Source: a phage
Length of the DNA stretch: 64,000 bases
NCBI GenBank assembly: GCA_024682255.1
Contig: GCA_024682255.1_4716.1
Strand: one strand, 5' to 3'
The notes below the pieces were generated by a model. That model ran no database searches and had not been told where the DNA came from. It saw only the letters and a program-made list of their open reading frames with translations. Of this stretch, positions 1,963 to 46,356 are shown in pieces. A program made the position numbers and the translations under genes. The number at the start of each line of letters is the position of its first letter. Position 1 is the first letter of the stretch.

Positions 1963-1984
1963 GCTTTCTCCTACGCGGCATAAA

Positions 1985-2006
1985 AGCCTGCCCCGAAGGA
2001 CAGGCT
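1985..2006 (-). terminator. GC-rich hairpin (agcctg...caggct) followed on minus strand by TTTTATGCCG; same element as 62642-62665 in opposite orientation
   Basis: inverted repeat read directly; 28-nt identity to reverse complement of 62640-62668. Confidence 0.5.
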
Positions 2007-2015
2007 CGATAGAAC

Positions 2016-2216: not shown

Positions 2217-2253
2217 AGCGCATCCCCATTCACTTGAACCTTTTGGTTCGGCA

Positions 2254-3234
2254 TTAGAAAAGCAAGAAACCGCTATTCTTCGCTTCCGCTACAGTTTCGT
2301 CACCAACTTTCGGTGCTTGTTGACGTGCGTTACGATGTTCGATGTAACGTTTCGCTTCGTCCGCGATCTGTTTGATAATACCCCCTAAACGATCGGTACT
2401 TAAAACAAACGACGTCGCTTCACGAATTGGGCTGCTTTCAGGCACAAAACCATCACAGCTGTAAATAGCGCTAACACCCATGACTTTGGTCGCGTCTTTC
2501 GGATAAAGCGTACAGAAAGCAATCGGGCTATCGTTCTCTTTCGTCCAATCGTATCCCATGAACGTATTCAGTTCGGTGATCGTTGGTTCCAAACCGGTAA
2601 CACGTGGATGGTTTAAGAAGTTTTCCAGGTCGGCGCTGTCAAGACGGCGGTTCTCGCCAGAAAACAGAACACAAAGCTGGCTGATAACAACCTGCACGTC
2701 CAGGTTGACATCCTGCTCCGATTTCCCATTTTCGCCATTCATGTGATAGCTAACAATCACTGGACGTTTCAACCCTTCTGCAGCAGCCATCAGTCCTTTG
2801 AAGGTGCGATCGGCGTTGATGGTTTGGCGTTCATCATCGAACGAGGCGACGATACAACACACCACACGTTCACCGCGTTCCAGCAGATTAGCAACCAACG
2901 CAGGACCGGCAACAGAACCTGAACCACCGCTCAAACTAAAGACCACGATATTAAATTTACCTGGTGTATGCTTATTGAGAATACCTGGGATTTGCGAGCA
3001 GATCAGTTCAGCGTTCTCGTCACGCTTCTTACCGGAACCGTCTAACTCACGACCAGCTGCATCTTTAAAGATGTAAATATGATCGTCGCCCAGTGTGCTA
3101 TCGCGTAGGTTAGCGCGGCTGGTATCAACATACGTCATGCTGTGTAATCCTTTCGCGACTTCGCCTTCAAATGCTGAGCCGATTTCGCCACCACAACCAC
3201 CAACAGCCCAAATATGTACTTGGTTCTCTTGCAT
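2254..3234 (-). CDS. phuZ: tubulin/FtsZ-superfamily GTPase, PhuZ-like phage tubulin
   Basis: N-terminal GGCGGEIG resembles tubulin T1 loop GQCGNQIG; SLSGGSGSVAG resembles tubulin signature GGGTGSG; ~326 aa as phage PhuZ; AGGAG SD. Confidence 0.65.
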   Translation of the reverse strand: MQENQVHIWAVGGCGGEIGSAFEGEVAKGLHSMTYVDTSRANLRDSTLGDDHIYIFKDAAGRELDGSGKKRDENAELICSQIPGILNKHTPGKFNIVVFSLSGGSGSVAGPALVANLLERGERVVCCIVASFDDERQTINADRTFKGLMAAAEGLKRPVIVSYHMNGENGKSEQDVNLDVQVVISQLCVLFSGENRRLDSADLENFLNHPRVTGLEPTITELNTFMGYDWTKENDSPIAFCTLYPKDATKVMGVSAIYSCDGFVPESSPIREATSFVLSTDRLGGIIKQIADEAKRYIEHRNARQQAPKVGDETVAEAKNSGFLLF

Positions 3235-3298
3235 GTGAACTCCTAACTTAATATGTATTTAACGCACAATGAATCTTTCTTTGCTAAAGGGGTGACCC

Positions 3299-4141
3299 AT
3301 GGGTGCTATTGACTACAGTGTAGATCGTATCTGTCGTACAATACCGGCAGATATCCTACAGTATTGCTATATCGATCGTTACGACTGGCGTAATCGCTAT
3401 CCTCGTTCCGTAGAAGACATCATTACCGATTGGGTAATCCGTAAACGGGTTATCGGCGACATCGATATCTACGGGGGACTACAAACCGTTATCCCCCTCG
3501 ATGATGCCGGTGTCACTATCGAAGAAGTCACCATTAACTGTTATGTTTTCCACATCCCGTTGGAAGCCACACAGGGACGTTATATCACGTCTGCATTATC
3601 CATTATTTCAGGGAGCGTGAACAACTACGGAATAAACTATAACGGGCAATGGGGTGCTTTCAACCAAACCCAGTTTCAACGTCAGCTTTGTGGGTGGAAC
3701 CCCGCAAGCAACACGTTACAGCAAGGGATGAACGCGTTCGGTCCCATGAACGTTCTTAGTACAGCCAACGTTGATATCATCGCCCCTAACACCATCATGG
3801 TGAACAACGTCACGCCTGTACAATTTCCCCTGAGTCTACGTTGTTTCCTTGCCCACGATCCGGAACTTACCAACCTCAGCATGGAGGTTTGGAACGACTT
3901 TTACAAACTCTGTTTATACGCCACACAAAGCGACATCTACAACAGAACCGTTATCCGTCTTGACAGAGGTGTTACAGCACAAGGACAAGAAGTCGGTGCA
4001 TTCAAGGAATACATCGATCGCTTTGCTGATGCTGAAAACACATATCAAGAATTCCTGAACGAAACGTGGGCGGGCGTTGCTGCCTGGAACGATCCACAAA
4101 CTAAACGTCGCGCTATTCGTTTGCAAACCGGTTACTTCTGA
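3299..4141 (+). CDS. hypothetical protein
   Basis: 280-aa ORF; followed by hairpin. Confidence 0.5.
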   Translation: MGAIDYSVDRICRTIPADILQYCYIDRYDWRNRYPRSVEDIITDWVIRKRVIGDIDIYGGLQTVIPLDDAGVTIEEVTINCYVFHIPLEATQGRYITSALSIISGSVNNYGINYNGQWGAFNQTQFQRQLCGWNPASNTLQQGMNAFGPMNVLSTANVDIIAPNTIMVNNVTPVQFPLSLRCFLAHDPELTNLSMEVWNDFYKLCLYATQSDIYNRTVIRLDRGVTAQGQEVGAFKEYIDRFADAENTYQEFLNETWAGVAAWNDPQTKRRAIRLQTGYF

Positions 4142-4668
4142 TTAACAACAGCTTCCTCCCTCGGTGTTTTTGAGGGAGGTATTTGCCGCTTGAACACTTT
4201 CAGCACGTTCGCAAATTCAGCAGCAATAATACAGGCCGAGGTTGATAGCTTATTGCTGAAAATGAGATCGTCCGGTAAACAATCGAACTGAATACCGTAT
4301 TGCGTCTTTGTCTCATCAACGATCAATGATGGTGTCGATCTTGTCTTCGCGATATCGGTGATATACAAACGTAAAAATAATTCACCGTCTTCGCTATCCA
4401 TAAAACGATAGGTGTTACCAGAAAACGCAACACATGGCGTAACGATAAATTGAACACGATCGTCGATCGGATGGATATTTAACCAACGTTCGATATCACT
4501 GCTACTCACATTCCGCATATTTACTACGGTAAAAGCAAATAGCGTATCGTGATGTTTGGAATAATGCAGCACATACGCCGCACCTTTCTTCCTGTGAATC
4601 CCTTCAATGTATTCTATTGTCGTATAGCCGGATTTATATAGCTTTACTTGCGGTTTCTCACTCATCAT
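4132..4668 (-). CDS. hypothetical protein (start moved to internal ATG overlapping upstream stop, TGATG)
   Basis: ORF track 4132-4749; ATGATGA start/stop overlap with upstream gene. Confidence 0.45.
   Translation of the reverse strand: MMSEKPQVKLYKSGYTTIEYIEGIHRKKGAAYVLHYSKHHDTLFAFTVVNMRNVSSSDIERWLNIHPIDDRVQFIVTPCVAFSGNTYRFMDSEDGELFLRLYITDIAKTRSTPSLIVDETKTQYGIQFDCLPDDLIFSNKLSTSACIIAAEFANVLKVFKRQIPPSKTPREEAVVNQK
4155..4179 (+). terminator. hairpin cctccctc/gagggagg followed by TATTTGCCG
   Basis: inverted repeat directly after stop of 3299-4141. Confidence 0.45.
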
Positions 4669-4964
4669 AACAACCCTTCCCGTTTCATCGCAGCACGCAT
4701 ACTTGCGTAAAGCGCATTCTTCATTGCACCTGGACGCAACGGATAACAAATCTCATATCGACGTCCTTGTTTTACAGCAATTTTCCTTCCATTCAGAAAC
4801 AACGTGCCATTATCCAGCAACAACTCACCTTGTAGTATCATGAGTCCTGCTTTAACATGACGTCCTTCTTCTTTCGTTAAGACCTTATAGCCATGTTTAT
4901 CCAATAACCACAATTCGTAGATACCACGCGCAGCCTTCGGCATTACTTTCTTCTTCGTCGTCAT
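4665..4964 (-). CDS. hypothetical protein
   Basis: 99-aa ORF in operon-like array. Confidence 0.45.
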   Translation of the reverse strand: MTTKKKVMPKAARGIYELWLLDKHGYKVLTKEEGRHVKAGLMILQGELLLDNGTLFLNGRKIAVKQGRRYEICYPLRPGAMKNALYASMRAAMKREGLL

Positions 4965-4976
4965 GGAAGATCCTCC

Positions 4977-5351
4977 TTAAACTCCTTGTCGGATCATCAC
5001 CAACCGGAGCATGTTGTATTCCAATGTAGCGCTTTCTAATTCGAATTCATATCGATACCAGAAATTCGGCTCTAATTGACCTACAACACATTTACGAACA
5101 TCTGTCTGCACCTTCCTCGACAACACCTGTAACAGTTGTGTTATCTCCGGCTTGAAGTAATACGCCAAACCTAACTGATCAGAATAAAACAGGCCACAAT
5201 CAAAGATGGCCTGTAAAATAACATATTCAACCATCAGGTGACGCGCATCGGGGTCAGGGAATGGCGAACGTAAAGCGAGGTCTAACACATCGACGATTGG
5301 GCCGACATAAATGGCGGCGCGGTACTCACGAATAACACTGATGTTATCCAT
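4977..5351 (-). CDS. hypothetical protein
   Basis: 124-aa ORF. Confidence 0.45.
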   Translation of the reverse strand: MDNISVIREYRAAIYVGPIVDVLDLALRSPFPDPDARHLMVEYVILQAIFDCGLFYSDQLGLAYYFKPEITQLLQVLSRKVQTDVRKCVVGQLEPNFWYRYEFELESATLEYNMLRLVMIRQGV

Positions 5352-5364
5352 GGTAGCCTATTCA

Positions 5365-6189
5365 TTAACTATCGCTTTCTGATGTATCGACGTAGTTGAA
5401 AATACGATCCCGTAAACACTCGTAACGAGGCAACGCGCTAAGAATGATCATCTTCAACTGCATCGCGATCGATATGCGTTCTTCATCCGATGCATCATCT
5501 CCCCATTTACCCGGCTTAACCTGAATAGGTTCATGCGGATCCTGCGGGAATATAAAACTTAACAACAGATAATCCGTGCGGAACTCCCACACTTCTCGAC
5601 CGTCGTTATCGGTTTCTTTACGCAACGTGAAGAGTTGACGTTCGGTGGTTGGATCCAGCATCAGCGGTCGACCACGAACGATCTCCAGTTTACGTGGGCT
5701 GACGAACGTCGTACGTTCAGGAAGGTATTTTTCAACATCATCCGTATCCAACAAGAACAAAATGATGTCGTCGAAATACTTCGGTGCGTACGTGTGTATC
5801 GGTTCACCGTCGCTATACGAAGAGATCTCTTGGAGTATTGGTGTCTTAGACGAAAAGTTCTGGCATGAACCACGGGTGATCGGTAAGGTGGTCCATTGAT
5901 GTTCTGTAGACAATTCAACAGGCACCAACGGATAATCATCGATGAATACCACACACGTTGTACTAATGGGTATTCTTCCATCATTGCCGGGTTCAAAAAC
6001 CAAACGTATCTTACCAGTAATCAGCGCCATCTCGTCCGGCATTAAATGGCTTGCTGACCGGGCAAGTCTGAAACCGGCCGCCTGTTTATAAGGTTCAGGT
6101 TTATAGCCACGGACAATAAGAGAGACATCCGCAAGTTCAACGCTCACGAATACATCTTTGGTGTCTTCATTGTTCGTCGTTAACGTCAT
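5365..6189 (-). CDS. hypothetical protein
   Basis: 274-aa ORF. Confidence 0.5.
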   Translation of the reverse strand: MTLTTNNEDTKDVFVSVELADVSLIVRGYKPEPYKQAAGFRLARSASHLMPDEMALITGKIRLVFEPGNDGRIPISTTCVVFIDDYPLVPVELSTEHQWTTLPITRGSCQNFSSKTPILQEISSYSDGEPIHTYAPKYFDDIILFLLDTDDVEKYLPERTTFVSPRKLEIVRGRPLMLDPTTERQLFTLRKETDNDGREVWEFRTDYLLLSFIFPQDPHEPIQVKPGKWGDDASDEERISIAMQLKMIILSALPRYECLRDRIFNYVDTSESDS

Positions 6190-13217: not shown

Positions 13218-14957
13218 TTATGCGACTTTACTAATAACGACTGCTGTGATACCGAGATGTAGGTCGACGCCATTCTGTACTTTAATCCAGCGGATATACA
13301 GGTTAGCGTTATCCTGTCCCGTACCACCTGGGACGTTATTGTTCCTATTCCATTGCGAGATTTCGAAACGTTTCTGCACGTTAGGACCAACCATGATTTC
13401 AAAGTGGGTCGGTTCTGGTGCTTTCGATTCCGTTTTCTCAAGATAGAGCGGATGTATCGGGTAGTAAAGCTGCTTCAACCATTCACCCAGATCTGAGTGT
13501 TTGTTCGTCAAGTCAACATACGCGTTACCAGCAACATCGTAAGTAAACAATGCTTTCGTGTTACGACCGTACACATCCGTTGTCGTCGGCGTTGTTTGCG
13601 AGCTGAACGTTACTGTCCAATAATCACCAGATGTTGCCGAACCTGCTTGCAGTAACGTCATTCGAATAGTCTGCGTATGACGTACGCGTTTGTAAACGGT
13701 AGGATCGACTTCATCTAACCAGATGTTATACGCAAATTCCTGAGGTTGTCCGTATTTCTTCGGATTAAACTCAGGGCTGTTCAGTGCCAATTGTACTTTA
13801 TCGGTTACGTTGTAGTATCGTTCACGGTCAACGTTATACAACCAGAACACCAGCTCGTATCCCACTGCATCAGATACCCATTGTGGATAGCAGAACAGTT
13901 TAACACTGTAAGCCCCTTTCGCTTCTTTAGAAACGACAGTATAAGGTACGCTGATATGTTTCACTGCGCCAGGTAACGCGTAGGATGTGTCCTCATCATC
14001 GTCCAGGTAGTAGTGTAACGCCAGCGGGTGTTTGCTGTTGATAACCTGGGACGTGAAGACGTTAAGGCCGTCCAACACAACCTTGTTGCCAGTAACCGGC
14101 CAATGTTTAATGGAGCCGTCACTGTAAGTGACTTCAGCCTGAAGGTCAACGGAATCCAGGTTGACGTTGATCGGCAACTCAAGCAGTTTGGTATCGCTGC
14201 TGCTCAACCACGTTGATTTCAGTCGTACCCCGTCTTCCAGAATATATTTAATACCCTGATCTGGTGTGCGTACATAGTCGGTGATACGAACAATCATACG
14301 TTTCATGGATAGCGGCTGTGGGCCATCGCCATAACCTACTACCATCACCTGCTCAAAATCTTCGACCGGCTTGATGCAGTAACCTTCGCGGGGTGCCCAG
14401 ATAGCTTTATTCGTTCCGTCTTTGTAAGCGATAAGCTGGCACGGAATGAAATCGCTAATCTTATTCCCGCTGTTATCATACATCGCACTGATGATTTCGC
14501 CTTTGGCGCTAATATCAGAACCGCGGAACACCGCGATACGTCGAATATCCGAGCCATGCAGATGGAAACGACGATCGATATTCATCGTAGCTGGGATCGT
14601 GTTCGTATTAATCAAGACACGCCACGTATCGTACGACCATGTCGGATCAATACCTTCGAAGGTTGTCGTCCCATCGTCCTGACCATCGAACGGAGCAGAC
14701 AGCTGACCGATAAGTTTAAGGGTACTTAGTTTAGTGCGATCGTCTACGGCGATAACACGGTATACTGCGTTGGTATCCCAGTCTTCAACTTTATCGTCCA
14801 CGTTGGGAACGTAAAGTTTCCAGTCTTCTTCAACGCCATTATAGATCTCTTTATACGCATAGGTGGTATAGCGTCTGTCGAGATCCTGAATAGCGAGTTT
14901 ATCCGGATGCTGTTGTGCATAAAGCACCGGATTGGTAATCTCTCTTCCCATTATCAC
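13218..14957 (-). CDS. hypothetical protein, probably virion-associated
   Basis: 579-aa ORF adjacent to terminase and large structural-type ORFs. Confidence 0.45.
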   Translation of the reverse strand: MIMGREITNPVLYAQQHPDKLAIQDLDRRYTTYAYKEIYNGVEEDWKLYVPNVDDKVEDWDTNAVYRVIAVDDRTKLSTLKLIGQLSAPFDGQDDGTTTFEGIDPTWSYDTWRVLINTNTIPATMNIDRRFHLHGSDIRRIAVFRGSDISAKGEIISAMYDNSGNKISDFIPCQLIAYKDGTNKAIWAPREGYCIKPVEDFEQVMVVGYGDGPQPLSMKRMIVRITDYVRTPDQGIKYILEDGVRLKSTWLSSSDTKLLELPINVNLDSVDLQAEVTYSDGSIKHWPVTGNKVVLDGLNVFTSQVINSKHPLALHYYLDDDEDTSYALPGAVKHISVPYTVVSKEAKGAYSVKLFCYPQWVSDAVGYELVFWLYNVDRERYYNVTDKVQLALNSPEFNPKKYGQPQEFAYNIWLDEVDPTVYKRVRHTQTIRMTLLQAGSATSGDYWTVTFSSQTTPTTTDVYGRNTKALFTYDVAGNAYVDLTNKHSDLGEWLKQLYYPIHPLYLEKTESKAPEPTHFEIMVGPNVQKRFEISQWNRNNNVPGGTGQDNANLYIRWIKVQNGVDLHLGITAVVISKVA

Positions 14958-17548
14958 TCACCTTTGATTGTGTAAAACTTCGTGAAGTCCACGCGATCTT
15001 TCAAGAACTCACGACTGACGCGTTCTAAGAATCGCAGTTGTTTAACCGTAACTTCAAGCGGTGTCCAACTGTCGTGTGGATGAATAGAGACCATCCGCCA
15101 ATCGTAATTACGTAACGCAGGATCGTAGTCATAGAACCATTTATACGGCCCCATGAAATCCATCAGTTTAACGTCCTGCATGTCAGGATCGGGATCGATA
15201 ACACCATTGATAAGATCGTACGTTACCGCCATCAACGTCGGGCTGATAAGCTGGTATTTGTTTTCAATCGTTACCGGCGTATCGTACTTCACACGAGGGA
15301 AATACAAGGACATATAGTCTTCAACGCGCTTATCGGTTTCAAGACTTTTGTCGCGTAGATAATACGTGTCTGTGTTCACGAGACCACGGATAGGGGCAAT
15401 AACGTGATAAATCGCATAAGGTACCCCATCGTTGACTTTGATGTCGGCAGGGTATTGCGTGTCCTCTGCTGTAACCACTTCGCTACGATCGTAAATACGT
15501 CCACCAACCACAATACGAACAACATGATCGTCGCGAACATTAAACACGTCGTCGTAAGAAAGCTGGTTATGCATCGTCCAACCGGTATCGTAAACGGTTT
15601 CGCCGGTTAAGTCCGTGCGTGGAAAACCGGTGCATCTCACGGTAACCGTGTGTGTGTTCCCTTCACTGAAATACCGTTTCGCGTTGATCACGATCGTTGG
15701 CCATTTTACGATATAATCGATATCGCGTACCAAGCTGTAGCTTTTGGTTGCTCGCTCGTCACCTAACCATACTTCGATTTGACCAGGTTCGAAAGGCAGC
15801 GGATATTCAACATCAATACCCGTCGTAACATCCAACCATACGGTATGGTTACGATGTTGTATTGTGGTCTTATACGCTAAGAAGTAGGTGTCGAACAACA
15901 CTAAACCGGTTTGCTTTCTTCCATCCAACGACCATTTTATCACCCCGTTCTCTTCCGTTACCACAGAAGCATCGTCGGTAACATCCTTCCATGTGTTCGC
16001 AACAGGTTGTCCGTTACGAAGGTTTACGCTATAGCAACGGTAGCTTGCCCATTCACGGATTGGGACGTCGGCAACACCCATCACGTAATCAAGCGTTCTC
16101 CCACCAACACCCGATCGACCCTCAACATAGGACGTGGTTTCATATTGCGGATAAAAATGTCGGCCTGCTGGATGTTGCGTGATACCCAATAATAGACCGT
16201 CACTGTCGTACTCGAAAAACGTCGCATTTGCACGCAAACCCCATGGTACTTCAGCAGTAGGGGTACCCATATCGTCAGTAACGCGTTGTGGACTATCTGC
16301 AACCAGTTTTGCCATCGCGTTATACCCGTAAGCGGAGGTCACCATGTCGATGGTGATATTGCTTTCCTTATTACGCATGATGCGTGTATAATCACTGGCT
16401 TCAAGGGTACGTGCAAAGAACTCAGGTATATTAGCGTTCTGTTCTAACATTGCACCGACGATGACGTCGTCTGGAAGTTTATACAATTCGTGAATGCGAT
16501 TATGTTCAAAGGTTAACTGCGTTTTCAGCCCACTATCGCGGATAACCACTTCCAGGGTTAAATCCCGAAGCGATTCTGCACCATCAACCCGTTCGACGAA
16601 GTAACTGACATAATCAACAGGAATCCCGTAATCACGATGCGTGAGCATGCGGATACTATTTTCCTGGTTGGTATGGTAATAACGTCCTTTTCCGTTAGGT
16701 CCTTTCACGTAGATATCAACATCATCACGATACTGGATCTTAGTATCTATTTCATCTTTCGGTGGATGAATAAGGTACTTCACTTTTTTGTCCAGATCGC
16801 TGTTGTACGTTTTAAGATCTTCTACACGGAAGCTGTACCGATGAACAACCGTACCGTCATAGACGACCTGAATGCTATCGCCGATCTTAAAACTTGACGG
16901 TGGGATGTCTTCAACCGCTTCACCATTGATGCTGCAGTGCGTCCAGCCGATACCGGTTTCCTGGATCTTTTTACGCCAGGCGTATAGCTGACGTTGCCAC
17001 TGCAGAACCTGTGTCGAGCTGGTTACAATCCCCCCAAGGACATGCACTTCACGCCCCGTCGGTTTCGTGTATGATGGATAGCCTTCTGCGAAGTCAGCAT
17101 TGAGATAAGTGCGCCAGTAATAATCACCAACGCCAAGGTCAGCGATATTCGGTTGGTCGAGCACACAGACCAGCATCGTTTCGTTTTCCAGATTACCCGT
17201 CCACGTTAATGTCAACGGGAATTCTTTACCGTCCTCGGTATAGATGTTGTAATACGATCCCTTCACCTCACAGAACTTGCTGAGTTCTCGCCACCACAAC
17301 CGCCCAGCCCCGACATTAAAATCCTCTCCCATATGTCGTCCAATAACAAACACATGGAACGTATTCGTATCGTCAGGAAGATTGAATGTACGATGCCACG
17401 CCGTAAAGTTTTTTACTGCGCCGGTCTTTCCGGTAATACGACGCATCTTGATACGATGCTGGTTGTCCATTAATGGACGGCAGTTCACATTCAGCGCAGC
17501 ATGATTTATCAAGTATTGCGCTGTAGGATTAGAAGCGTTCAACACCAC
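14954..17548 (-). CDS. large hypothetical protein, probably virion structural
   Basis: 864-aa ORF, no enzymatic motif recognised. Confidence 0.45.
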   Translation of the reverse strand: MVLNASNPTAQYLINHAALNVNCRPLMDNQHRIKMRRITGKTGAVKNFTAWHRTFNLPDDTNTFHVFVIGRHMGEDFNVGAGRLWWRELSKFCEVKGSYYNIYTEDGKEFPLTLTWTGNLENETMLVCVLDQPNIADLGVGDYYWRTYLNADFAEGYPSYTKPTGREVHVLGGIVTSSTQVLQWQRQLYAWRKKIQETGIGWTHCSINGEAVEDIPPSSFKIGDSIQVVYDGTVVHRYSFRVEDLKTYNSDLDKKVKYLIHPPKDEIDTKIQYRDDVDIYVKGPNGKGRYYHTNQENSIRMLTHRDYGIPVDYVSYFVERVDGAESLRDLTLEVVIRDSGLKTQLTFEHNRIHELYKLPDDVIVGAMLEQNANIPEFFARTLEASDYTRIMRNKESNITIDMVTSAYGYNAMAKLVADSPQRVTDDMGTPTAEVPWGLRANATFFEYDSDGLLLGITQHPAGRHFYPQYETTSYVEGRSGVGGRTLDYVMGVADVPIREWASYRCYSVNLRNGQPVANTWKDVTDDASVVTEENGVIKWSLDGRKQTGLVLFDTYFLAYKTTIQHRNHTVWLDVTTGIDVEYPLPFEPGQIEVWLGDERATKSYSLVRDIDYIVKWPTIVINAKRYFSEGNTHTVTVRCTGFPRTDLTGETVYDTGWTMHNQLSYDDVFNVRDDHVVRIVVGGRIYDRSEVVTAEDTQYPADIKVNDGVPYAIYHVIAPIRGLVNTDTYYLRDKSLETDKRVEDYMSLYFPRVKYDTPVTIENKYQLISPTLMAVTYDLINGVIDPDPDMQDVKLMDFMGPYKWFYDYDPALRNYDWRMVSIHPHDSWTPLEVTVKQLRFLERVSREFLKDRVDFTKFYTIKGE

Positions 17549-18476
17549 GGCATGCCTCCAGGAGGTATTTCATGTTGGCTTGGAAATCATTGACGTCACG
17601 CGCCATACGACGCTGATCCGCCATGAGACGAGCCAACACGGTATCACGGTAACCACGATCGTGGTCAGCAGCAGAGCATAAAAGAATAAATGTTGGTGGG
17701 TGCTCTAAAGCAATCCCGGCAACTTCTTTACTATAACCCCCAACCCAACTGTAAGCGGTGATTTCAAACAACAACGCCTGGGTTAACGTGTTCAAACGGG
17801 GACTAATATTACTTTCTTTTAACGCTGTTACAAAAGCTGCCATGTTAGGGATATAACCCAGGTTTTCGGTTACGATACCGATGCTCGCAAAATCGTAACG
17901 AAGCGTTGTCTGGATGGTGCGCACCATAGTTAGTCTTTCATTATTTGTAAGGCTATCTTTAAACAAGCAAAGATAATACCATGCTGTTATGATGGCAACA
18001 TCGCGACGTTGTTGAAGGTCCAGTCCTAAACGTTGTGTGATTTGTCCGCTAATCCAATCACAAAAGACACGCATCGGGATAGGGCCAAGACGTTCAAAAG
18101 GGCGTGTGCCCAAGGATTCCCATCCTACCTGAAGATACGCACGTGATTGAAGAAAGTTATATTCACGTTCGTTAACAACGGTAGTACGCGATCCTGGGCG
18201 TGAAGTATCTGTTGGGGTGCGCGCGTAGGCGCGTTGGTCGATAACAACGCGCTGTCCGTCCATCACTGTTTTAATGACCAATGGATGACCAAAAGAAGGG
18301 ATATCGTCCAACGTATTTTTGTTGCCGATGACTTCGAGAACGGGAGTGTTTACGCCACTTTCTTCACCGGGTGCACTTAACAATCCGCCGACGTAAGCAA
18401 CTTCGATAGCGGTTCGGATACGGTCAATGCCTTTTAGTTTTGTTCCAACAGTTGTGTCGTAAGGAGAGATGAACAT
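17529..18476 (-). CDS. hypothetical protein
   Basis: 315-aa ORF; TTATATGCCG ~20 nt upstream of start. Confidence 0.5.
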   Translation of the reverse strand: MFISPYDTTVGTKLKGIDRIRTAIEVAYVGGLLSAPGEESGVNTPVLEVIGNKNTLDDIPSFGHPLVIKTVMDGQRVVIDQRAYARTPTDTSRPGSRTTVVNEREYNFLQSRAYLQVGWESLGTRPFERLGPIPMRVFCDWISGQITQRLGLDLQQRRDVAIITAWYYLCLFKDSLTNNERLTMVRTIQTTLRYDFASIGIVTENLGYIPNMAAFVTALKESNISPRLNTLTQALLFEITAYSWVGGYSKEVAGIALEHPPTFILLCSAADHDRGYRDTVLARLMADQRRMARDVNDFQANMKYLLEACRGVERF

Positions 18477-18619
18477 ATGTAATTCCTTTATTACGGCATA
18501 TAAGAAAACGGGTTAAGCACACAGATTTACGCATAATTGTAATATTTTACGTTATGCCTATGACATTGTGTCACGTGTGCAATTATGTCATACAATTTCC
18601 TTAAATTAAGGAGAGTTCC
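18477..18619. promoter_or_regulatory. divergent control region with TATGCC(G/T) motifs facing both flanking genes
   Basis: TTATATGCCG on minus strand and TTATGCCTATG on plus strand; AAGGAGAG SD before 18620. Confidence 0.35.
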
Positions 18620-20692
18620 ATGAGGCTTAAGAATAGCACGCCTCGCGCGATTTTTACGGGCTTTAAAGAGGGTCTTACCACGGATCCGGTTACAGCCCCA
18701 GAGATCACGCCCATTCACCTCCCGTATGTTTTCATTCAGGGTGGTCGTGGTAAAGAGGACACCTTGCTGTTAACAGGGGACGCCCTGTCTACAGTCTACG
18801 GTGAAGATATGCTGAACTACCGCAGTAAGTACGCTTCTCCAGCAACACTGATTGCTCGCCAGGCTGCTTCTACAGGTAGCGCGATCTTCACAAAACGTTT
18901 GGTTGCACCGGATGCAACGGCAGCACGCATCCGTATCGGTGTTGAAGTGGTCGCCGATAAACTGGTCGTTTACCAGCGTAACGCTGACGGGTCTTTCAAA
19001 AAGGACACCGGCGGCAACAAAATCCCTGACGGCGATAAAACCGTTGACGGGTTGAAAATGCGTTGGGTTGTTAACCACGACAAAGATGCCGAAACACCGA
19101 ATGCTTTCGGTAAAGATGAAGTGGTTCTCGGACAACTGACTGCAACAGGTGGTGCCCAGAGCAACTACTATCCTATTCTGGATGGATTGGTGAGCTGGCG
19201 TGGTGCTGACGGGGACAACATCGGCTTACGTCTGGAAGCACCGACCGCGCTGAGCAGTAACCCTACCCGTACCGATATTATCGAACGCATCGGTGCTTTC
19301 CTGTACCGCATTCAGTTCGTGGAACGCAAGTCTTCACGAACTGCGCCGACGGTCATTCGTACGATCGGCGGTATGGAACAAGAAACCTTCGCGTTGCAGG
19401 AAGGTGTTATCCAGCCTGATGACGAAACCGATCTGTCCTTCGGTAAAGTGGTCGTTGATGCCTACGAGTATAATGAAACGGGTAACACCCCAATCTTTGC
19501 TCCAATGGATCAGATGCATCTTTATCAGAAGAACATCGATGACGTCGTCAAGATGCTGTACGAATCTGAAAGCAAAGTTAACAACGATCTGTTAACCGAC
19601 GTCGAATTCGTCGAAGGTCAGATGAACATCTTCACCGGTGTCGATTACAACGGCATTCCGTATCAAACCATCGAAGTTCTCGATGCGGATCAGGGCGGTG
19701 CTATCTTCGACGGTACCAGCACCTTCTACGCGATCGATGGTAGCGACGGCGACGTCAGCTGGGATACCTTCGATGCGTTAGCGAAGCAGCAGTTCGAATC
19801 GTTCGGCAACATGGGCGAAGATCTGGAAGACATGGCTTTCTATCCGTTCTCTATCGTGTATGACATTGGTTACAAAGTCGACACGAAGAAAGCGATGGCA
19901 AACGTCTTGTCTCTGCGTCCGGATGTCATGATCATTGCGTCAACCCATACCTGGAAGGGTGTGGAACTGAATGTCGATGAAGAAAGCTCCATGGGCGCGA
20001 TGCTGCGTAACTACTATCGTCTGCATCCAGAAAGCGTGCTTTACAATACCCCAGCCTGTCGTGCTGCCGTATTCATGCAATACGGGGAGAGCATCGAAGC
20101 GCCAAGCCTGGGTAAAGTTCCGTTGACGCTGGAAGTTGCTAATAAACTCGCAACTTACATGGGTGCTTCGGATGGTGTTATCCGTGGTACTCGCATCGAT
20201 AACAACCCTGGTAACGTTGTCACAACGATGCGTAAAATCAACAAGACGTATCGTAACGCAACGGTCCGTGATCGTGATTGGGAAAACGGCTTGAACTATG
20301 TTCAGACCTACAACCGTAATTCCAACTTCTTCCCGGCTTGGGGCACGATCTACAATAACGACCGTTCGGTATGGCGTTCGTTGATCAACGTGATCATCGG
20401 TTGCGATCTGACTCGTGTCTGCTATCGTCTCTGGGCAGAAACCACCGGTACCACAGGAATGGATGAAGCGCTGTTCCTGAAACTGATGGGCGAACGCTTC
20501 CTGGAATACACCACGGGCCGTTACAACGACCATGTGACTGTTAAGGGGCGTTTCTACCTGGATAAAGAAGACGGCTATAACGGCTTCAGCTATCACGGCG
20601 ATATCAGCCTGATCGGCGATCCAGGCATGACCGTGGGTACGTTTACCATCACCGGGCTGCGTCGTAACACCGAAGCAGCAGAAGCGGCGTAA
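18620..20692 (+). CDS. putative tail sheath protein
   Basis: 690 aa (phiKZ-type sheath is about this size), strong SD, followed by ~300-aa gene and terminator; no motif-level proof. Confidence 0.45.
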   Translation: MRLKNSTPRAIFTGFKEGLTTDPVTAPEITPIHLPYVFIQGGRGKEDTLLLTGDALSTVYGEDMLNYRSKYASPATLIARQAASTGSAIFTKRLVAPDATAARIRIGVEVVADKLVVYQRNADGSFKKDTGGNKIPDGDKTVDGLKMRWVVNHDKDAETPNAFGKDEVVLGQLTATGGAQSNYYPILDGLVSWRGADGDNIGLRLEAPTALSSNPTRTDIIERIGAFLYRIQFVERKSSRTAPTVIRTIGGMEQETFALQEGVIQPDDETDLSFGKVVVDAYEYNETGNTPIFAPMDQMHLYQKNIDDVVKMLYESESKVNNDLLTDVEFVEGQMNIFTGVDYNGIPYQTIEVLDADQGGAIFDGTSTFYAIDGSDGDVSWDTFDALAKQQFESFGNMGEDLEDMAFYPFSIVYDIGYKVDTKKAMANVLSLRPDVMIIASTHTWKGVELNVDEESSMGAMLRNYYRLHPESVLYNTPACRAAVFMQYGESIEAPSLGKVPLTLEVANKLATYMGASDGVIRGTRIDNNPGNVVTTMRKINKTYRNATVRDRDWENGLNYVQTYNRNSNFFPAWGTIYNNDRSVWRSLINVIIGCDLTRVCYRLWAETTGTTGMDEALFLKLMGERFLEYTTGRYNDHVTVKGRFYLDKEDGYNGFSYHGDISLIGDPGMTVGTFTITGLRRNTEAAEAA

Positions 20693-20707: not shown

Positions 20708-21598
20708 ATGCGTCCTGATAATACCCTACTCGGTGAACAGGGTGTTGGTGCTCTTAGCAACGCGGCTATGGTCGATATTCGTGCGGGTGCCCAAAACGGG
20801 TACATCAGCAATATCGGTACGTACGTTGCTAACGCCAACTACATTCCGAACCAAATGTTCTGTCTCCTGCTGGAGGCACCACGTGGTTTCAACTATCTGC
20901 CTAACCCGGATGTACAGATTGGTTATCTGAAGGCGCTGGTAGAAGAGGTTGCGCATTCGATTACCGGTCTGCAACGCGGATTGGAAGTTGAATTCGTTAG
21001 CGTCCCGGTTTCTGGTTCCGGTGAAATCCAGGAAGAAGTCTCTGACGTTAAACGTCCTCGCTCTAACCCGACTTTCGGGATCTATGAGAAAGAAGGTCGT
21101 TCCGTTAGTTACTTCCTGGAACAATGGATCACGTATCTGTTGATGGATCCGGATGCCAAATATCCGATGTTGTCGTCTATCGTATCCACCGGTGGTCCAA
21201 CCGACCTGCTGGCGGATTATCGTAGCGCAACAATGCTGTTCGTTGAGCCAGACCGTCAACACAAGAAAGTGGTTAACGCCTGGCTGTGCACGAACATGAT
21301 GCCTCACGGTACCGGTGACTGGACATCACGTCGTAACAAGAACGATGCGCCAAACGTGGTAGAATTGAGCATTCAGTTCACCGCGTTAACACAGACCAAC
21401 TACGGCGTGCGTGCTTTTGCACAACGTCTGCTGGATAAGATGAACCTACTCAAAGTTAACCCGGATTTCCGTCCGGCTTATCTGAGCGACATCGATCCGG
21501 CTGTGGCGGCGCAGAAGGTTGGCTATACCTTCGACTTTGATAACAACGATACCTTTGAGGTACCGAATACTTATCAAAACGTAACACCTCGCGTGTAA
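20708..21598 (+). CDS. putative tail tube protein
   Basis: 296-aa ORF directly after sheath candidate; inference from order and size only. Confidence 0.35.
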   Translation: MRPDNTLLGEQGVGALSNAAMVDIRAGAQNGYISNIGTYVANANYIPNQMFCLLLEAPRGFNYLPNPDVQIGYLKALVEEVAHSITGLQRGLEVEFVSVPVSGSGEIQEEVSDVKRPRSNPTFGIYEKEGRSVSYFLEQWITYLLMDPDAKYPMLSSIVSTGGPTDLLADYRSATMLFVEPDRQHKKVVNAWLCTNMMPHGTGDWTSRRNKNDAPNVVELSIQFTALTQTNYGVRAFAQRLLDKMNLLKVNPDFRPAYLSDIDPAVAAQKVGYTFDFDNNDTFEVPNTYQNVTPRV

Positions 21599-21624
21599 CG
21601 TAAAAAAAAAAGCATATTAACCTC

Positions 21625-21661
21625 CCTTCCTTCCCTAGCCGTCAAGGCCGGGGAAGGAAGG
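21625..21661. terminator. bidirectional terminator: 11-bp stem ccttccttccc/gggaaggaagg, TTTATGG on plus side, A10 tract (U10 on minus) on the other
   Basis: inverted repeat plus flanking homopolymer at 21603-21612. Confidence 0.55.
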
Positions 21662-21673
21662 TTTATGGTTTAT

Positions 21674-24145: not shown

Positions 24146-24249
24146 CTTTTTAAATTCCTACTTAACAATAAAGTTCATATACGGCGTATGTATCCGTAGA
24201 ATAATGGGTTCTGGTAAGATCTTACATCAAAATGACGGCATAAAAAGTA

Positions 24250-24275
24250 CCTCCTTACCCATGTGGGTAAGGAGG
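24250..24275 (-). terminator. 12-bp stem hairpin cctccttaccca/tgggtaaggagg followed on minus strand by TTTTTATGCCG
   Basis: inverted repeat and motif read directly. Confidence 0.5.
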
Positions 24276-24427
24276 TTCGTCCATCACGACGAAAGGACGT
24301 TATGTGACGCGGTGTCCATAACGGCCCTGGTAGCAGGCATTAAAGATAACAAAAAGGATGTAAGTTGAGCTAAACCACCTAAATACGGTAACGATTACTT
24401 CCGTACACAATATAACGCAACATCTTT

Positions 24428-28618: not shown

Positions 28619-29728
28619 TTATTTAGCGTCGTTAAAGTAAATATCAACAGCTCGTTCCGTTGCGTAGAGGAGACCAAGATTCACAGTCCCAACCACTTCC
28701 GGTGAACCGATGATACGGTTAGCGATACTGGTGCCACTGAAGATAGCATCAAGGGTGTGCCCGTCTTCGGTTTTGTTCACACCATGACCCACGGAAGAGA
28801 CAACGGATTTCGCTTGAGCTGCGAAGGTACCTTTATCACCCATCCCCGCACCAAGGTCGTAACGCATGAAAATACGGATGGCGATCTGGTTCTCGCCTAA
28901 CGGATTACCGTCTATTCTCACGTTACTGTTATTGATACGCCCCGTTGTTGCTTCGTTGAGTTTCAGTTCCTTAACGCGTTTAGCTCGTGCTTTATCCGCT
29001 TCACCGACGAGCGCTGCCATGGTTTCACTCATATCCTCAATCTGAGCGCGGTACAGTACATCGATCTGTACAACTTCACCATGAACGTCAGCACGTGGGT
29101 TATACTGACTCATACGACGTAATGCTTCAACGGCTTCCTGACTCTCATCACTCAGATCGGTTGCAATCGGTTCTTCCAGTGTTGCAAGGATCGTTCGAGG
29201 TTCAACGTGATCGCCGATTTTCACGAGACCGCGAATGTTGAGATGGGCGTCAACGATAAGCGTACGGCTCTTAATCGATGGTGTTACGAGACGATCGGCA
29301 AGATTGTCGAAGATATACGAACTGTCCTCGTGGGTCTCTGGAATATCCAGAATACCGACAAGAGACAGCACGCCTGCGCGCCAAACAACCTGACCTGGGT
29401 TCCACCAGTCGCGTTTAAAATAAAGACGATGGAAAACCACCACATCCTGATCCTTAACGCGATCCCCGACTTTATAATCGGTAATGAGATCGTGAGGATA
29501 ATACTTACCTGGTCCTTTCCCGATTATCGTACCGAGCTGGAAAACCTCTTCCCCTAACTCTGGATCGTCGTACTGTATCGTCAGCGCAGTTTTGGTGACC
29601 TTCTTGACAACACCATCGCCTTGGGCGGCAGCTGCGAAGAGTTTACCAACACGATGCGCGATAACAGTCTCACCGCCGGTGCGCCACGGTTGTACATCGT
29701 AACCTTCAGCAGCAATCATGCGGTTGTG
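28619..29728 (-). CDS. RNA polymerase beta-like subunit, exon 2 (track ORF 28619-29749 begins at an in-intron TTG that is not a real start)
   Basis: HNRMIAAEG matches beta ANRALMGAN; GDKGTFAAQAKSVVS matches beta GDKMAGRHGNKGVIS; frame open upstream into intron. Confidence 0.75.
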   Translation of the reverse strand, partial: HNRMIAAEGYDVQPWRTGGETVIAHRVGKLFAAAAQGDGVVKKVTKTALTIQYDDPELGEEVFQLGTIIGKGPGKYYPHDLITDYKVGDRVKDQDVVVFHRLYFKRDWWNPGQVVWRAGVLSLVGILDIPETHEDSSYIFDNLADRLVTPSIKSRTLIVDAHLNIRGLVKIGDHVEPRTILATLEEPIATDLSDESQEAVEALRRMSQYNPRADVHGEVVQIDVLYRAQIEDMSETMAALVGEADKARAKRVKELKLNEATTGRINNSNVRIDGNPLGENQIAIRIFMRYDLGAGMGDKGTFAAQAKSVVSSVGHGVNKTEDGHTLDAIFSGTSIANRIIGSPEVVGTVNLGLLYATERAVDIYFNDAK

Positions 29729-30264
29729 CTGTATACCTATAAATACCAATCTCTTGGGCGAATTTAGTTCTTATTCAACATAATCGTACTATTACCAGAA
29801 TAAGACTGAGATTAGATTGTTCAGATAAGGTCGTTGCTTGAAACGATCGTTTCAGCGCTCATCTTATCCCGGAGGCGACGATAGGCACATCACCTCCCGC
29901 TTGCGCTCTCACGCAAGAGCAGACTATATCACATCTCGTTTCAAACGGTGCTTCTTCAGCACCTCAACGAGAGTTCACTTCTTCCCAGCGCATCCAGCGC
30001 CATTCTCTTATCCAAGGAGAATGCCTCACTCGAGGGGTACAGGGGGATGAATCCCTTAGTCGTTGAACCTTTACCTTAGAACGCTTCACAGCGATCCTTA
30101 GGTACTTGGCTGCGGATTGTCCTTAAGCTATTATCTGTTTTTATACCATACCGTCTTTCTTTTCAGAATCCGTTTTGGTCGATAACAGCGATGGATGTCT
30201 TCGCAATTCAGTGAATCTCATCTACATGTCGCCACATAGACGGACCCTGCTATTAAAAGCGTTA
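29729..30264 (-). ncRNA. group I self-splicing intron (no ORF) in RNAP beta-like gene
   Basis: minus-strand P (AAUUGCGAAGA, 30198-30208), Q (AAUCCGCAGC, 30109-30118), R (GGUUCAACGACUAAGGGAUU, 30050-30069), S (GAUAUAGUC, 29922-29930) in canonical order; exon ends in U, intron ends in G. Confidence 0.8.
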
Positions 30265-33200
30265 ATCATCTCTATCAGCAGCAGGTACTGCAAGTGCTGA
30301 TGTACTCATTATTGACGAGCTACCATCCGTTTTCTCGTCGTAGGGTTTCGTTTCACCGTATACAGACACAATGTTTGCGTTAGGTGCAAGGTAAGCAGAG
30401 ATACCTACGTCCCCACTATCCTTCGTACCTTCGGATACAACACCAATGTCCGACTTGTCGTATTCACGATCGCGTGCGCGTCGAAGCGATGTCTTTGAAC
30501 GACCCCCAATACCGGTCATCGTCGCTTCTTCACCCTGCTTGATATCCAGCATCGGGTTGGTTTCATCGATCACGATGGAAGCACTGTCGTCGAGAATTTG
30601 GTTCCAGACACTTACCGGACTGATTGAGATTTTCTGGCGATTTCCTTGACTGCTGTTCTCATTCTGACGAATAGCGCCAACCAGATCCTTATACACCAAT
30701 TCAGCGAACTTATCGTACGTTTTAAAACGTTGGTAGTTCACATCGTTCGTGTTAGGAGCCCAATCATCCAGAAGCAATTCAACAGCACGCAGTAACAACA
30801 TGGCGAAATCGGTAGGTTCTCCCATGTTCTGCAGCAACATACGGCTTACCGGATCAACGAAAAGACGCTCCATGAGTTCAAGTTCGCGTAAATGACGAAC
30901 CTTAAGTCCGGCACCATCGACAACGTTAAAATAGATATCTCGATTGTCAAAAGCGCCGCGAGCGTAACCAATGTAGTTACGGTATTCGTTAAACCCACCC
31001 AGCAACAACGTCGTCATGCGGTCGTCTTTACTGAAGATCAAACTTTCGTCGTCAAAGCTCACCGCGAATTCATCGGGTGCTAGACCCATACGAGAACCGC
31101 GAGGTACCGTACGATAGTTTGCTTTAAGATGTTCTAATAACGGGGTGAGTCCGCCCAGATAACTTAGAACAACACCGACCGGAATACGTACACCCATGAA
31201 TTCAAGATCGGCAGCTTCGATCGGCATCTTGGCCGCATTGATGCCGAAGAAATCAGGGAACGTCCCTACAGGTGTTGGTGTTTGTCCTGACTGACAGATA
31301 TAGAGCTGATTGCGTTTATCGATTGCTAAGAATTCACCCAGCGTGTTACGCGCAAACGTCAGGAGCCCTTCGGCTAACTGTTCGTTGAACCGATCTTCCC
31401 CAATGAACTCCGGTAGCGTTTTTATATCGAGACGTATATCCCAATCAGCAAATTGGATTTGGGTATAATTGCGCGCAAGCACAGCGAAGTAGTACGGAAC
31501 TTTGACAGCTGGATCAAAGACGTTACCACGTTTTAACGTGGTTAAGGGTGAGGACTTATCGTAATACATCGCTGTAAGTTGACGTGTTAGCCAACGACCC
31601 GCATTATTAACGACGCGCTCTGAACGTTTAACAAACACCTTACCGTAGGCGGTACTCAATGCAACTTCGGATGACGATACCTTTCTAATAGGTTTATCAA
31701 CACGTTGTTTACGCATCCGGTATTTGATGCCGTTAACGACATAAATGCCGTCCTTACGAACCTTCGGCAACATCACCGGGAACGTGGTCGGGACACCGCC
31801 TACAGGAGCCAGTTTAATCGTGATGACTTGATAATCCCCCATCACGTCAACGACATCTTCAACTTTATATCCCGTGACAGGGTAACCTGCCTGCTGTACC
31901 GCAACAACGGCAGCTGCGATGTCCTTTTGCATTACGTGTTCGACGTAATGTTTATCCCACACCGCGAGCGTCGATTTACATAAGCTCTTGTCGACGATAA
32001 CATCCGCTTCCGGCATAACCTTTGCAGGCGCTAATTTCGCGGCTTTTGGTTTAACTTCAACATACTCGGCAAGTGTTAATCCAGAACCGTCGGGTGCTTC
32101 GATTTCGTGAATGGCATCGGCGTTACGCATCGCTGCTTTATATTGGACACCGCTTAACTGACCCGCATCGGCCAGATCGCTCGCGCGTACCAACACCGCA
32201 TCCGATAACGACTGAATATATTCACCATGTGTTTTTGGTAACGTTGTCGCATCAAAGACATCAACCTTTTCTTCTTCGGTATCGTCGGTAACGACTTCGA
32301 AGAGATCGTCGGTAATGTCCTGATCTTCATCGGGTTGGAAATCCGGCTGTACTTCTACCCCGGGTACTTCACGGACATCTTCGAACGAGCGTTCTACAAT
32401 GGCGTTCCACGCATCAGCGTCATCGTCTTCATCCGAACCACCGACCAACTCCGCTTCTAACTCATCGGGATCAAGAACGGTAGCCAGATCCTCACCGTTA
32501 GGAAGCACGACGTCGCGATCATCGTACTCCGCATCCGGGCTGTCTGCAAGAATATCCCGCTCTTGACGAAGAACCTGTTCCTCTTCTTGTTTCTGTTCTT
32601 CTTCATTCGCGCTCTGCGACCACAGACGTGTTACCGCCATCATCCAACGACGCTGGAAGGTTTCGAGTGTCGTTTTATCGAGTTCTTCCCCTTCCTTTAC
32701 AAGTCCGGTACGCCATTCTTCCAGCAAGCCGAGATTCAGCGTAAAGAAGTACACACCGTCTGTAAATACAACGTTAAGCTTATCCAGCGTGGCCCTGTCT
32801 AACGAAGCCATCGTGCTGTTCTCACGATCGGTTCCCAGCCAGCGGAAGAAGTCAAAGAACGACAGCTCCTCCGGTGTGGCGAAATTCATGAGGTTGTTAC
32901 GGGTCGGTGCCTGTTGCGTGGTACGCATCAACGAAATCTTCGGCAATGTTGACGGTATACGGAACAACAAAAAGTGTTGACGATCGCTTTGCTGTGCGAT
33001 TTCGTTGGCTTTCGACCAAATTGTTTTACGTACGTTGAACCATTCATCATACCAACGGGTGAGCGTTGGACGATAAATGTACATGTGGTTAAGATGCGCG
33101 TAGTTAGCAACGATCTGAGCGTTGATGTTTTTCTCTACCGTGCTTAGATCGGTAACCAAACGAAAACGACGATGTGATGCACGATAATCCAATTTCGCTC

Positions 33201-33471
33201 GTGGGAGTTGGAATCGTTGATCGCGTCGAGGTGCGCCCTGTTTGGTTGCGAGATCATCAGCAAACGAAATCCATAGTTGAGCACTTTCTTTACTCAGCAT
33301 GTATTCGTTTTCTGGAGGACCTATCAACGATGGATCCGTTGCGGTGTAATGATAGACAGCATAACGCGGCAGCTGCAATAGCTGCACTAAACGTAATCTC
33401 GGTGATAGTAGCTCTTGGTAGCGTCTGACACCGAACTGTCGGTAGTAATCAAGGTATTTAAGTTTTGCCAT
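30265..33471 (-). CDS. RNA polymerase beta-like subunit, exon 1 (includes ~450-500 aa non-RNAP N-terminal extension)
   Basis: MTGIGGRSK...SGDVGISAYLAPNAN matches beta ALGPGGLTRERAG...PEGPNIGLINSLSVYAQTN; C-terminal VPAADRDD matches beta IPFLEHDD. Confidence 0.8.
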
Positions 33472-46351: not shown

Positions 46352-46356
46352 TTATG

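Follow-up and report, generated by a model that had tools for sequence, protein, structure and literature searches.

The 143-bp spacer at positions 18477-18619 of the 64,000-nucleotide stretch of phage DNA analysed here (NCBI GenBank assembly GCA_024682255.1, contig GCA_024682255.1_4716.1; hereafter 'the window') lies between two divergent virion genes, a minus-strand homolog of gp219 of Escherichia phage vB_EcoM_Goslar and a plus-strand tail sheath gene, and its pattern of conservation marks it as a genuine control region of the phage-polymerase type that is under selective constraint. The best reading, in which we place moderate confidence, is that it joins a late promoter of the non-virion RNA polymerase (nvRNAP) to a conserved leader of the sheath message, the control on the gp219 side being less conserved. 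It is a regulatory region of an ordinary kind, not a new type of system. The strongest signal is an ultra-conserved block of ~80 nt (18539-18617, plus strand) that holds the candidate promoter core and the entire sheath leader; this block is absent from the description given by an earlier, sequence-only reading of the spacer, which had proposed a bidirectional late promoter with TATGCC motifs on both strands.

Around the spacer, the window is 98% identical over 3.2 kb to Goslar, a 237-kb nucleus-forming jumbo phage of the Chimalliviridae that infects E. coli; the spacer itself is 100% identical to its Goslar counterpart, and the flanking genes differ by ~2%. The layout proved to be as the sequence-only reading had it: 143 bp separate the minus-strand gene start at 18476 (CAT at 18474-18476) from the sheath start at 18620, structural-type genes stand on both sides (on the plus strand the tail sheath gene gp218, on the minus strand the gene homologous to that of the phiKZ capsid-vertex protein gp28), and the sheath gene has a strong Shine-Dalgarno-type ribosome-binding site, AAGGAGAG (18608-18615, plus strand), 4 nt ahead of its ATG. 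TATGCC does occur on both strands, and the G's of the TATG motifs in question lie 21 nt (minus) and 64/58 nt (plus) from the respective ATGs. The spacer has a G+C content of 33% against 47% window-wide. Since the flanking genes diverge, a separate start signal is needed for each.

Conservation of the spacer across diverged phages

Protein-cluster and metagenome searches returned three diverged lineages that share the gene order, and eight sequences from four lineages were compared. Identity over the first 154 sheath residues is 86% for L022/L023, 76% for L013-L015 (a 259-kb genome) and 74% for L016; a pattern scan of IMG/VR and a gp219 protein scan gave only near-identical Goslar-like contigs. 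At four-fold degenerate sites of the sheath gene identity is 58% (L022), 39% (L013) and 46% (L016), whereas across 18537-18617 (83 alignment columns) it is 94% (78/83), 92% (76/83) and 89% (74/83), respectively, with P from 1e-13 to 1e-23 for the difference. The block is the highest identity peak of the 13-kb alignment and exceeds every coding stretch. A search of the Goslar genome found no second copy of it, which rules out a paralogous block elsewhere in that genome; only the 12-mer at its left edge recurs.

This AT-rich 12-mer, GTAATATTTTAC (18539-18550), keeps its plus-strand reading TATTTTAC in all lineages. It is followed by the plus-strand tandem-TATG motif TTATGCCTATG (18552-18562). 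The first TATG of the tandem (TATGCC, 18553-18558) begins 2 nt past TATTTTAC and has its G at 18556, 64 nt from the sheath ATG; the second, within TATGACAT (18559-18566), has its G at 18562, 58 nt from that ATG. The sequence-only reading had treated the TATGCC motifs as the signals. On the plus strand TTATGCC reads TAATGCC in L022/L023, although it is intact in the other lineages and its surroundings are conserved, whereas the adjoining second TATG, as cTATGACAT, is invariant across all lineages and is the best candidate, judged by conservation, for a conserved sheath start site. The second TATG also lies in the left arm of an inverted repeat, TATGACAT-N18-ATGTCATA, whose 8-bp arms surround a perfect 6-bp palindrome (central CACGTG). 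The right arm is a minus-strand TATGACAT (18585-18592; G at 18589, 113 nt from the gp219 ATG) that faces the plus copy with an overlap of 28 nt; the repeat is retained, and its minus-strand TATG (18589-18592) is invariant in the 8 sequences from 4 lineages.

The gp219-proximal half of the spacer evolves differently. Against L022 it is 93% identical (63/68) where four-fold sites are at 58%, and is thus constrained, whereas against L013/L016 identity is 41%, a neutral level. The minus motif cTTATATGCCGtaat (18493-18502, minus strand; also written TATATGCCGT or cTTATATGCCGt) has its TATG at 18500-18497, the G at 18497 lying 21 nt ahead of the gp219 ATG, and is followed by the gp219 ribosome-binding site AAAGGAA (18483-18489). 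Its TATATGCCG is conserved only in the nearer lineage L022/L023, where the motif reads cTATGCCGTAAT and has 1 nt inserted upstream of it, and is missing from L013/L016. The motif resembles a terminator tail (TTATGCCGT) without its hairpin, and is a candidate for a lineage-specific gp219 start site. A second minus-strand TATG (TTATGCG, 18530-18536; G at 18532, 56 nt ahead of the gp219 ATG) stands back-to-back with the plus-strand TTATGCC, the 12-mer between them (GCATAA-N16-TTATGC); it is TTATGCT in L022/L023 and is lost in L013 (CCGTGCC) and L016 (CGATGTC). In the L013/L016 spacers the sole TATG on the gp219 strand is that of the minus-strand TATGACAT.

Coding capacity was rejected as the cause of the conservation. 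A 16-codon upstream open reading frame (ATG at 18554, MPMTLCHVCNYVIQFP, stop at 18602-18604) has no ribosome-binding site, all 3/3 of its differences from L013 are nonsynonymous and none synonymous, and nearby four-fold sites are saturated; a 32-aa reading frame called in L013/L014 is likewise unsupported. As a separate observation, GTAATATTTTAC recurs exactly once in Goslar, in the divergent gp29/gp30 virion-gene spacer (L005 26414-26425, outside the window), and from this placement it may be an element common to divergent late or middle control regions.

The same layout occurs in the phiKZ-like phages. Between phiKZ and PhiPA3, positions -68 to -12 from the sheath ATG are 90-95% identical, against 60-80% for the sheath gene and 45-60% for gp28, and the layout is shared by five phiKZ-like genera (phiKZ, PhiPA3, D6, Phabio and Viktualia) whose sheath proteins are 61-67% identical. 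Here TATGATTGAC is invariant: in phiKZ and PhiPA3 it lies 64-67 nt ahead of the sheath ATG, and D6, Phabio and Viktualia have it at the aligned position; GTAAAAwwTAAC is invariant or nearly so; the 19-mer ACACTCATAACATCGAGTT, with its facing minus-strand TATG, is invariant; and a stem of anti-site and ribosome site, GCTCCA-loop-TGGGAGAA, is kept while its loop varies in length and sequence. The remaining TATGs of the phiKZ spacer are not conserved. Words related to the 12-mer, GTAAwwwwTwAC, occupy the corresponding place in phiKZ-like phages, DT01 and Xoo-sp14, and the divergent gp28/sheath order is kept in phiKZ, PhiPA3, RAY, Xoo-sp14, DT01, Eowyn and SNUABM_54. The annotated gp28 homolog of PhiPA3, gp010 (L024 214-1285), looks truncated at its N terminus, a phiKZ-like start (..AAACAT followed by TACCG..) lying ~260 nt upstream of the annotated one; with that start the true PhiPA3 spacer would be ~127 nt, not 385 nt.

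These footprints bear on an open question, namely what, beyond the four bases of TATG, directs the choice of start by nvRNAP in nucleus-forming jumbo phages. Comparison between promoters within one genome shows only TATG, whereas the same promoter followed across diverged genomes gives a sharp footprint, and the positions that are invariant in two independent clades, Goslar-like and phiKZ-like, are direct targets for mutation in in vitro transcription.

Polymerases, promoters and terminators

In phiKZ the late promoters of nvRNAP, a five-subunit enzyme, share the experimentally defined core T(-3)ATG(+1), in which G is the start and all four bases are required, and a pocket of GP123 holds the TATG. 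Promoter strength depends chiefly on sequence downstream of the start; in the phiKZ literature TATG is too frequent to suffice, and the decisive downstream sequence is unidentified. PhiKZ develops independently of the host RNA polymerase, and phages of this kind keep their DNA inside a protein shell. Goslar carries counterparts of the enzyme: gp165 matches PHIKZ074 and gp171 matches PHIKZ071, both chains of the solved phiKZ nvRNAP, and gp39 is the GP123 homolog (24% identity, E = 5e-57), adjoining the capsid gene as in phiKZ. The gene annotated as an RNA polymerase beta subunit, gp78, was dropped as GP123 counterpart, having no solved relative. In gp39, 7/14 pocket residues are identical (Ser144, Phe151, Lys158, Lys190, His331, Ser334 and Gln466) and 2/14 are conservative changes (His185Tyr and Tyr406Phe); seven identities against a background of 24% give P = 0.03, short of proof.

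We propose that the spacer would be read by the phage's own multisubunit RNA polymerase, most likely nvRNAP, the enzyme for middle and late genes inside the phage nucleus, and that it would be neither a host sigma-70 region nor an early region of the virion polymerase. The constrained core serving the sheath-tube operon would consist of the AT-rich GTAATATTTTAC followed by two TATG initiators 6 nt apart, with the sheath start at the G of 18556 and/or of 18562, of which 18562 is the invariant one. The predicted transcript would have a leader of 58-64 nt, conserved nearly base for base. As the strength of phiKZ late promoters is set downstream of the start, this leader may be part of the promoter as well as a functional RNA. 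As RNA it could fold into a GACAU/AUGUC stem, at the 5' end or close to it, and into a hairpin that pairs the ribosome-binding site, and would then be a translation-gating 5' untranslated region (5'UTR). The gp219-gp220-gp221 unit would rely on less conserved signals, TATATGCCGT (21 nt from the ATG) and TTATGCG (56 nt), in Goslar and its nearest lineage, and in all lineages might use the minus-strand TATGACAT, which is invariant and faces the start site of the sheath gene; this facing TATG may be a second start site, an arm of an RNA stem or a protein site. Which TATG fires, when, by which polymerase and with what role at the RNA level are points that we infer from the comparisons above.

Features of known phiKZ promoters recur in the spacer. 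Like the phiKZ late promoter P119L, it has a coding-strand TATG a few tens of nucleotides ahead of virion genes, with an AT-rich stretch upstream (in P119L, cTATATTGC abutting TATG and GTAATTTTAG at -34..-25), and the dependence of phiKZ late promoters on downstream sequence fits a conserved leader. In contrast, phiKZ late promoters have only TATG in common with one another whereas the orthologs of the sheath promoter are conserved over ~80 nt, and the Goslar TATGs, as candidate starts, are in tandem with an inverted second copy. The phiKZ middle promoters (5'-AAanTTACc-3', with its centre near -24; some of them also have TATG at the start) similarly place an A/T-rich ...TTAC element upstream of TATG, as GTAATATTTTAC is placed here, but the Goslar element is centred at about -10 or -16 and not at -24. 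Upstream of the sheath gene in phiKZ itself, AAAAATAAC precedes a TATG by ~21 nt; that TATG, at middle-promoter distance, is not conserved in D6 or Viktualia.

The early class of Goslar promoters has a different form. A 34-nt motif, TTTCACGgCTAyATTACyTnnGTGA, has 13 sites in the genome scoring 24-43 bits, on one strand and with one before the nuclear-shell gene, and is presumably the early promoter of the virion polymerase; we found no description of this class for Goslar. The spacer shares with the virion-polymerase early promoters, which have an AT-rich element near -10, the core A(T/A)TTAC, but it lacks the 34-nt consensus: its best score with a weight matrix built from the 13 genomic sites is -8.8 bits, which rules out an early-promoter reading of the ATATTAC core. 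Elsewhere in the window early-type copies of the motif occur at 61748, 48629, 23340 and 9037, all on the minus strand.

The word TATGCC, which the sequence-only reading took for the promoter signal, belongs for the most part to something else. In the whole window it occurs 19 times against 23.4 +/- 4.2 in shuffles, and is thus not over-represented. With the whole Goslar genome taken for counts of intergenic words and terminators, TATGCCGT is strongly intergenic (11/21 copies fall in non-coding sequence, which makes up 7.4% of the genome) and TATGCCG(T) is among the most intergenic words. However, 13 of the ~17 intergenic copies of TATGCC come immediately after a GC-rich CCCTCCC...GGGAGGG hairpin and a short run of T's. 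The intrinsic terminator motif of phiKZ and 201phi2-1 is BCCYCCCCHWWDGGGRRGGBYTTATKYYGT (Putzeys et al., 2024); TATGCC(GT) matches its 3' tail, and this is the dominant intergenic motif in Goslar and in the window. In Goslar TATG stands behind terminator hairpins as commonly in convergent gaps (12/22) as in tandem gaps (20/41), and is therefore part of the terminator unit itself. A repeated promoter word is ruled out on these grounds, and motif-based promoter calling in such genomes calls for caution, the commonest intergenic TATG word belonging to terminators.

The spacer copies differ from terminators in having no hairpin and in lying between diverging genes, with nothing to terminate. The minus-strand TATATGCCGT fits 8/9 positions of the tail TTATKYYGT and the plus-strand TTATGCCTA fits 7/9, but a hairpin scan found no GC-rich hairpin in the spacer (none across Goslar 191809-200229), and neither copy is downstream of a same-strand gene, both flanking genes pointing away from the spacer; with the hairpin absent, the spacer was ruled out as a terminator. 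Both copies are among the four intergenic Goslar copies that lack a hairpin, and each is directed at a gene. Two TATGCC in 143 bp, one per strand and each toward its gene, have a Poisson P of 0.0009 at the genome-wide Goslar rate and of 0.009 at the intergenic rate. For TATG as such, the spacer holds 6 (3 per strand) where the intergenic average predicts 1.5 on both strands (P = 0.004). The proposal of a bidirectional promoter for virion genes thus stands in part: the genes diverge, the spacer is dense in TATG and the early motif is absent, but TATGCC is not the signal and evolution is faster on the gp219 side.

PhiKZ-type terminator units, in which TTATG(CCGT) comes after a CCCTCCC...GGGAGGG hairpin, were also seen in the window at 1963-2032, 21599-21673, 24146-24427, 46301-46356, 54535-54585, 59174-59282, 62637-62700 and 63281-63333, several of them two-way with TTATG on both strands. 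That the core of the late promoter is found inside most terminators, convergent gaps included, raises the idea that the TATG pocket of the polymerase could take part in pausing or termination.

Several observations weigh against a late promoter joined to a functional leader. We found no transcription start map for Goslar in the literature. TATG by itself carries little information and, as TATG(CCGT) belongs to the terminator unit, its presence alone is no evidence of initiation; once terminators are removed, TATG shows no sense enrichment in the tandem intergenic regions of Goslar (30 sense vs 33 antisense). In the polymerase, Goslar departs from GP123 at 5/14 pocket residues, one of them Tyr399, the residue that encloses T-1. 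The position of the 12-mer relative to TATG is -17..-6 or -23..-12 in Goslar and -41..-30 from the invariant TATG in phiKZ. On the RNA side, the folding energy of the leader is unexceptional (z = -1.7 in a single-sequence fold), and the leader alignment holds no double compensatory change, the RNA structures resting on one-sided or loop substitutions.

Competing explanations for the block

The alternative that survives best, although we regard it as somewhat doubtful, is that the block is mainly RNA: a structured sheath leader in which a 5' stem stabilizes the message and a hairpin gates translation, the promoter being only a few bases round TATG. Such a leader might further be bound by a protein or play a part in export from the phage nucleus. 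Consensus folding of the leader gives two hairpins, the first being the inverted repeat with an inner extension; its 5'-proximal stem GACAU/AUGUC sits within the TATGACAT inverted repeat. Near the sheath gene a predicted hairpin UUUCCUUA-AAU-UAAGGAGA (18596-18614, plus strand; -6.3 kcal/mol) pairs the ribosome-binding site with an upstream anti-site, and its sole substitution falls in the loop. All five substitutions in the block suit an RNA role, three falling in loops or linkers and the others (U-A to U.G and U.G to U-A) keeping a pairing that exists on the sheath strand only. The ribosome-site hairpin recurs with unrelated sequence in DT01 and in the phiKZ-like phages, where it takes the form CUCC-loop-GGAG, the stem being invariant and the loop differing in both sequence and length.

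There is also a precedent in a conserved small RNA derived from the 5'UTR upstream of the tail gene gp182 in phiKZ, 201phi2-1, EL and PhiPA3, likewise a conserved structured leader preceding a tail gene in the same phage family; it differs in preceding another gene and in being defined by premature termination, while the sheath spacer has no terminator. Against a mainly RNA role stand the near-total invariance of the block, which favours sequence-specific recognition over shape alone, the want of double compensatory changes and the modest folding z-score. In the phiKZ clade the consensus fold of the leader has only two invariant 4-bp stems and no covariation, and the upstream stem is not maintained. 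Rfam 15 covariance models on 18300-18800 gave no family and only a chance miRNA match (E = 9.9). The single-sequence fold also gave a long-range pairing between GCCUAUG and the start-codon region, which was discarded as it is not retained in relatives. The RNA reading is in any case compatible with a promoter and does not exclude one.

It is less likely, though it deserves weight, that both TATGCC copies are non-functional, either chance copies or hairpin-less relics of terminator tails (TTATGCCGT), the true start signals lying elsewhere in the block. The terminator context of most intergenic copies (13/~17) speaks for this, as do the independence of hairpin-following TATG from any need for a promoter, the broken plus-strand TATG of L022/L023 and the missing minus copy of L013/L016. 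On the other hand, the minus copy and its surroundings are constrained between Goslar and L022 (63/68 vs 58% neutral), the GCC behind the plus copy is invariant, and both copies aim at genes at plausible leader lengths, two in 143 bp being unlikely by chance.

Somewhat less likely again is a pair of facing initiators, in which the plus-strand TATG at 18562 (sheath) and the minus-strand TATG at 18589 (gp219) would both be real and the two units, overlapping by 28 nt, would interfere or be coupled through polymerase collision or complementary 5' ends. Both TATGACA copies are invariant, and in L013/L016 the minus copy is the only gp219-strand TATG left in the spacer; similarly, the sole gp28-strand TATG of the phiKZ spacer lies in the invariant 19-mer and faces the invariant plus-strand TATG with a 22-nt overlap. 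Pairs of facing TATGs spaced by 20-36 nt are present in 4/7 independent lineages, each having a 3-14% chance in shuffles (combined P ~2e-4). However, the overlap window was chosen post hoc, the arrangement is missing in DT01, Eowyn and Xoo-sp14, the same inverted repeat would be expected from an RNA stem or a dimeric protein site, and Goslar has two gp219-strand TATGs nearer to the gene, the proposal being drawn from sequence. The pR and pL promoters of coliphage 186 stand face-to-face and produce divergent transcripts that overlap. Their start sites, like those suggested here, are a few tens of bp apart, but they are sigma-70 promoters of a lysis/lysogeny switch, whereas the Goslar spacer serves virion genes and its arrangement is deduced.

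In a broader form, which we consider improbable, the facing pair would belong to an undescribed sheath control module found across the family and made up of GTAAwwwwTwAC, an invariant TATGA, a facing TATGA 22-34 nt downstream and a ribosome-site hairpin, both TATGAs firing. If so, the sheath-tube and gp28 operons would be overlapping divergent units with complementary 5' ends, production of head vertices and tails could be coupled or balanced through polymerase interference or RNA pairing, and the long-sought 'downstream determinant' of promoter choice by nvRNAP would be the invariant bases that follow TATG.

More improbable still is an operator, with a phage-encoded DNA-binding regulator sitting on TATGACAT-N18-ATGTCATA and/or CACGTG and timing or balancing sheath expression. 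The 8-bp inverted arms flanking a perfect 6-bp palindrome, the base-for-base invariance and the uniqueness of the element in the genome are what a gene-specific site would show, but no candidate regulator was identified, the block of the phiKZ clade differs in sequence and has arms of only 5 bp (TATGA/TCATA) round another palindrome (GTTAAC), and conservation reaches far past the repeat, up to the ribosome-binding site. Finally, a host sigma-70 promoter for the sheath gene, GTGTCA-17 nt-TACAAT (18568-18596), is very improbable: this single 9/12 consensus match does lie within the conserved block, but such matches are below chance in the region (3 vs 5.5 +/- 2.5), the -10 hexamer is TAGCAT in L013/L016, and phiKZ develops without the host polymerase, its DNA enclosed by a protein shell.

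Neighbouring genes and other features of the window

The minus-strand gene at 17529-18476 (315 aa, from the list of open reading frames; Pfam PhiKZ_VTX, PF25614) encodes a protein with 99.7% identity to Goslar gp219 and 31% to PHIKZ028; a Goslar cryoEM preprint names gp219 as the predicted homolog of phiKZ gp28. It heads a leftward block with homologs of gp220, a baseplate spoke protein (14954-17548, minus strand), and gp221 (13218-14957, minus strand). On the plus strand the sheath gene (18620-20692; 690 aa, Pfam phiKZ_gp29PR; Goslar gp218) is followed by the tail tube gene (20708-21598; 296 aa, Pfam Phage_TTP_14; Goslar gp217), and the sheath-tube unit ends in a two-way terminator (21599-21673), whose GC hairpin has TTTATGG behind it on the plus strand and TTAATATGC behind it on the minus strand.

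Two group I introns were noted farther along the window. The first (29756-30261, minus strand; 506 nt; Rfam RF00028, 56.3 bits) lies inside the large RNA polymerase beta-subunit gene that is homologous to Goslar gp207 and divides that gene into reading frames 28619-29749 and 30262-33471. The Goslar counterpart is uninterrupted (4347 nt), the intron thus being present in the window phage and not in Goslar, and it has no obvious homing-endonuclease gene. The second (33718-34180, minus strand; 57.9 bits) corresponds to the annotated Goslar intron 211817-212245 and adjoins an HNH/NUMOD-type endonuclease gene and another polymerase subunit gene.

Sheath proteins near-identical to that of Goslar (P0008, P0010, P0027, P0028, P0041, P0042, P0044, P0058 and P0073) were found on contigs of 235-247 kb in assemblies labelled as Salmonella enterica, Escherichia coli and Shigella flexneri isolates. 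Goslar-like phages thus seem to accompany cultures of bacterial isolates often, as a carrier state or as contamination, and their host range may extend beyond E. coli. Lastly, positions ~58700-64000 of the window align to Goslar 1-5400, such that the window spans the ends of the Goslar record uninterrupted. The record repeats a terminator and a long A run at both ends (the poly(A) lies near 59225-59240 in the window), which gives its published ends the look of either an arbitrary cut or a terminal repeat.

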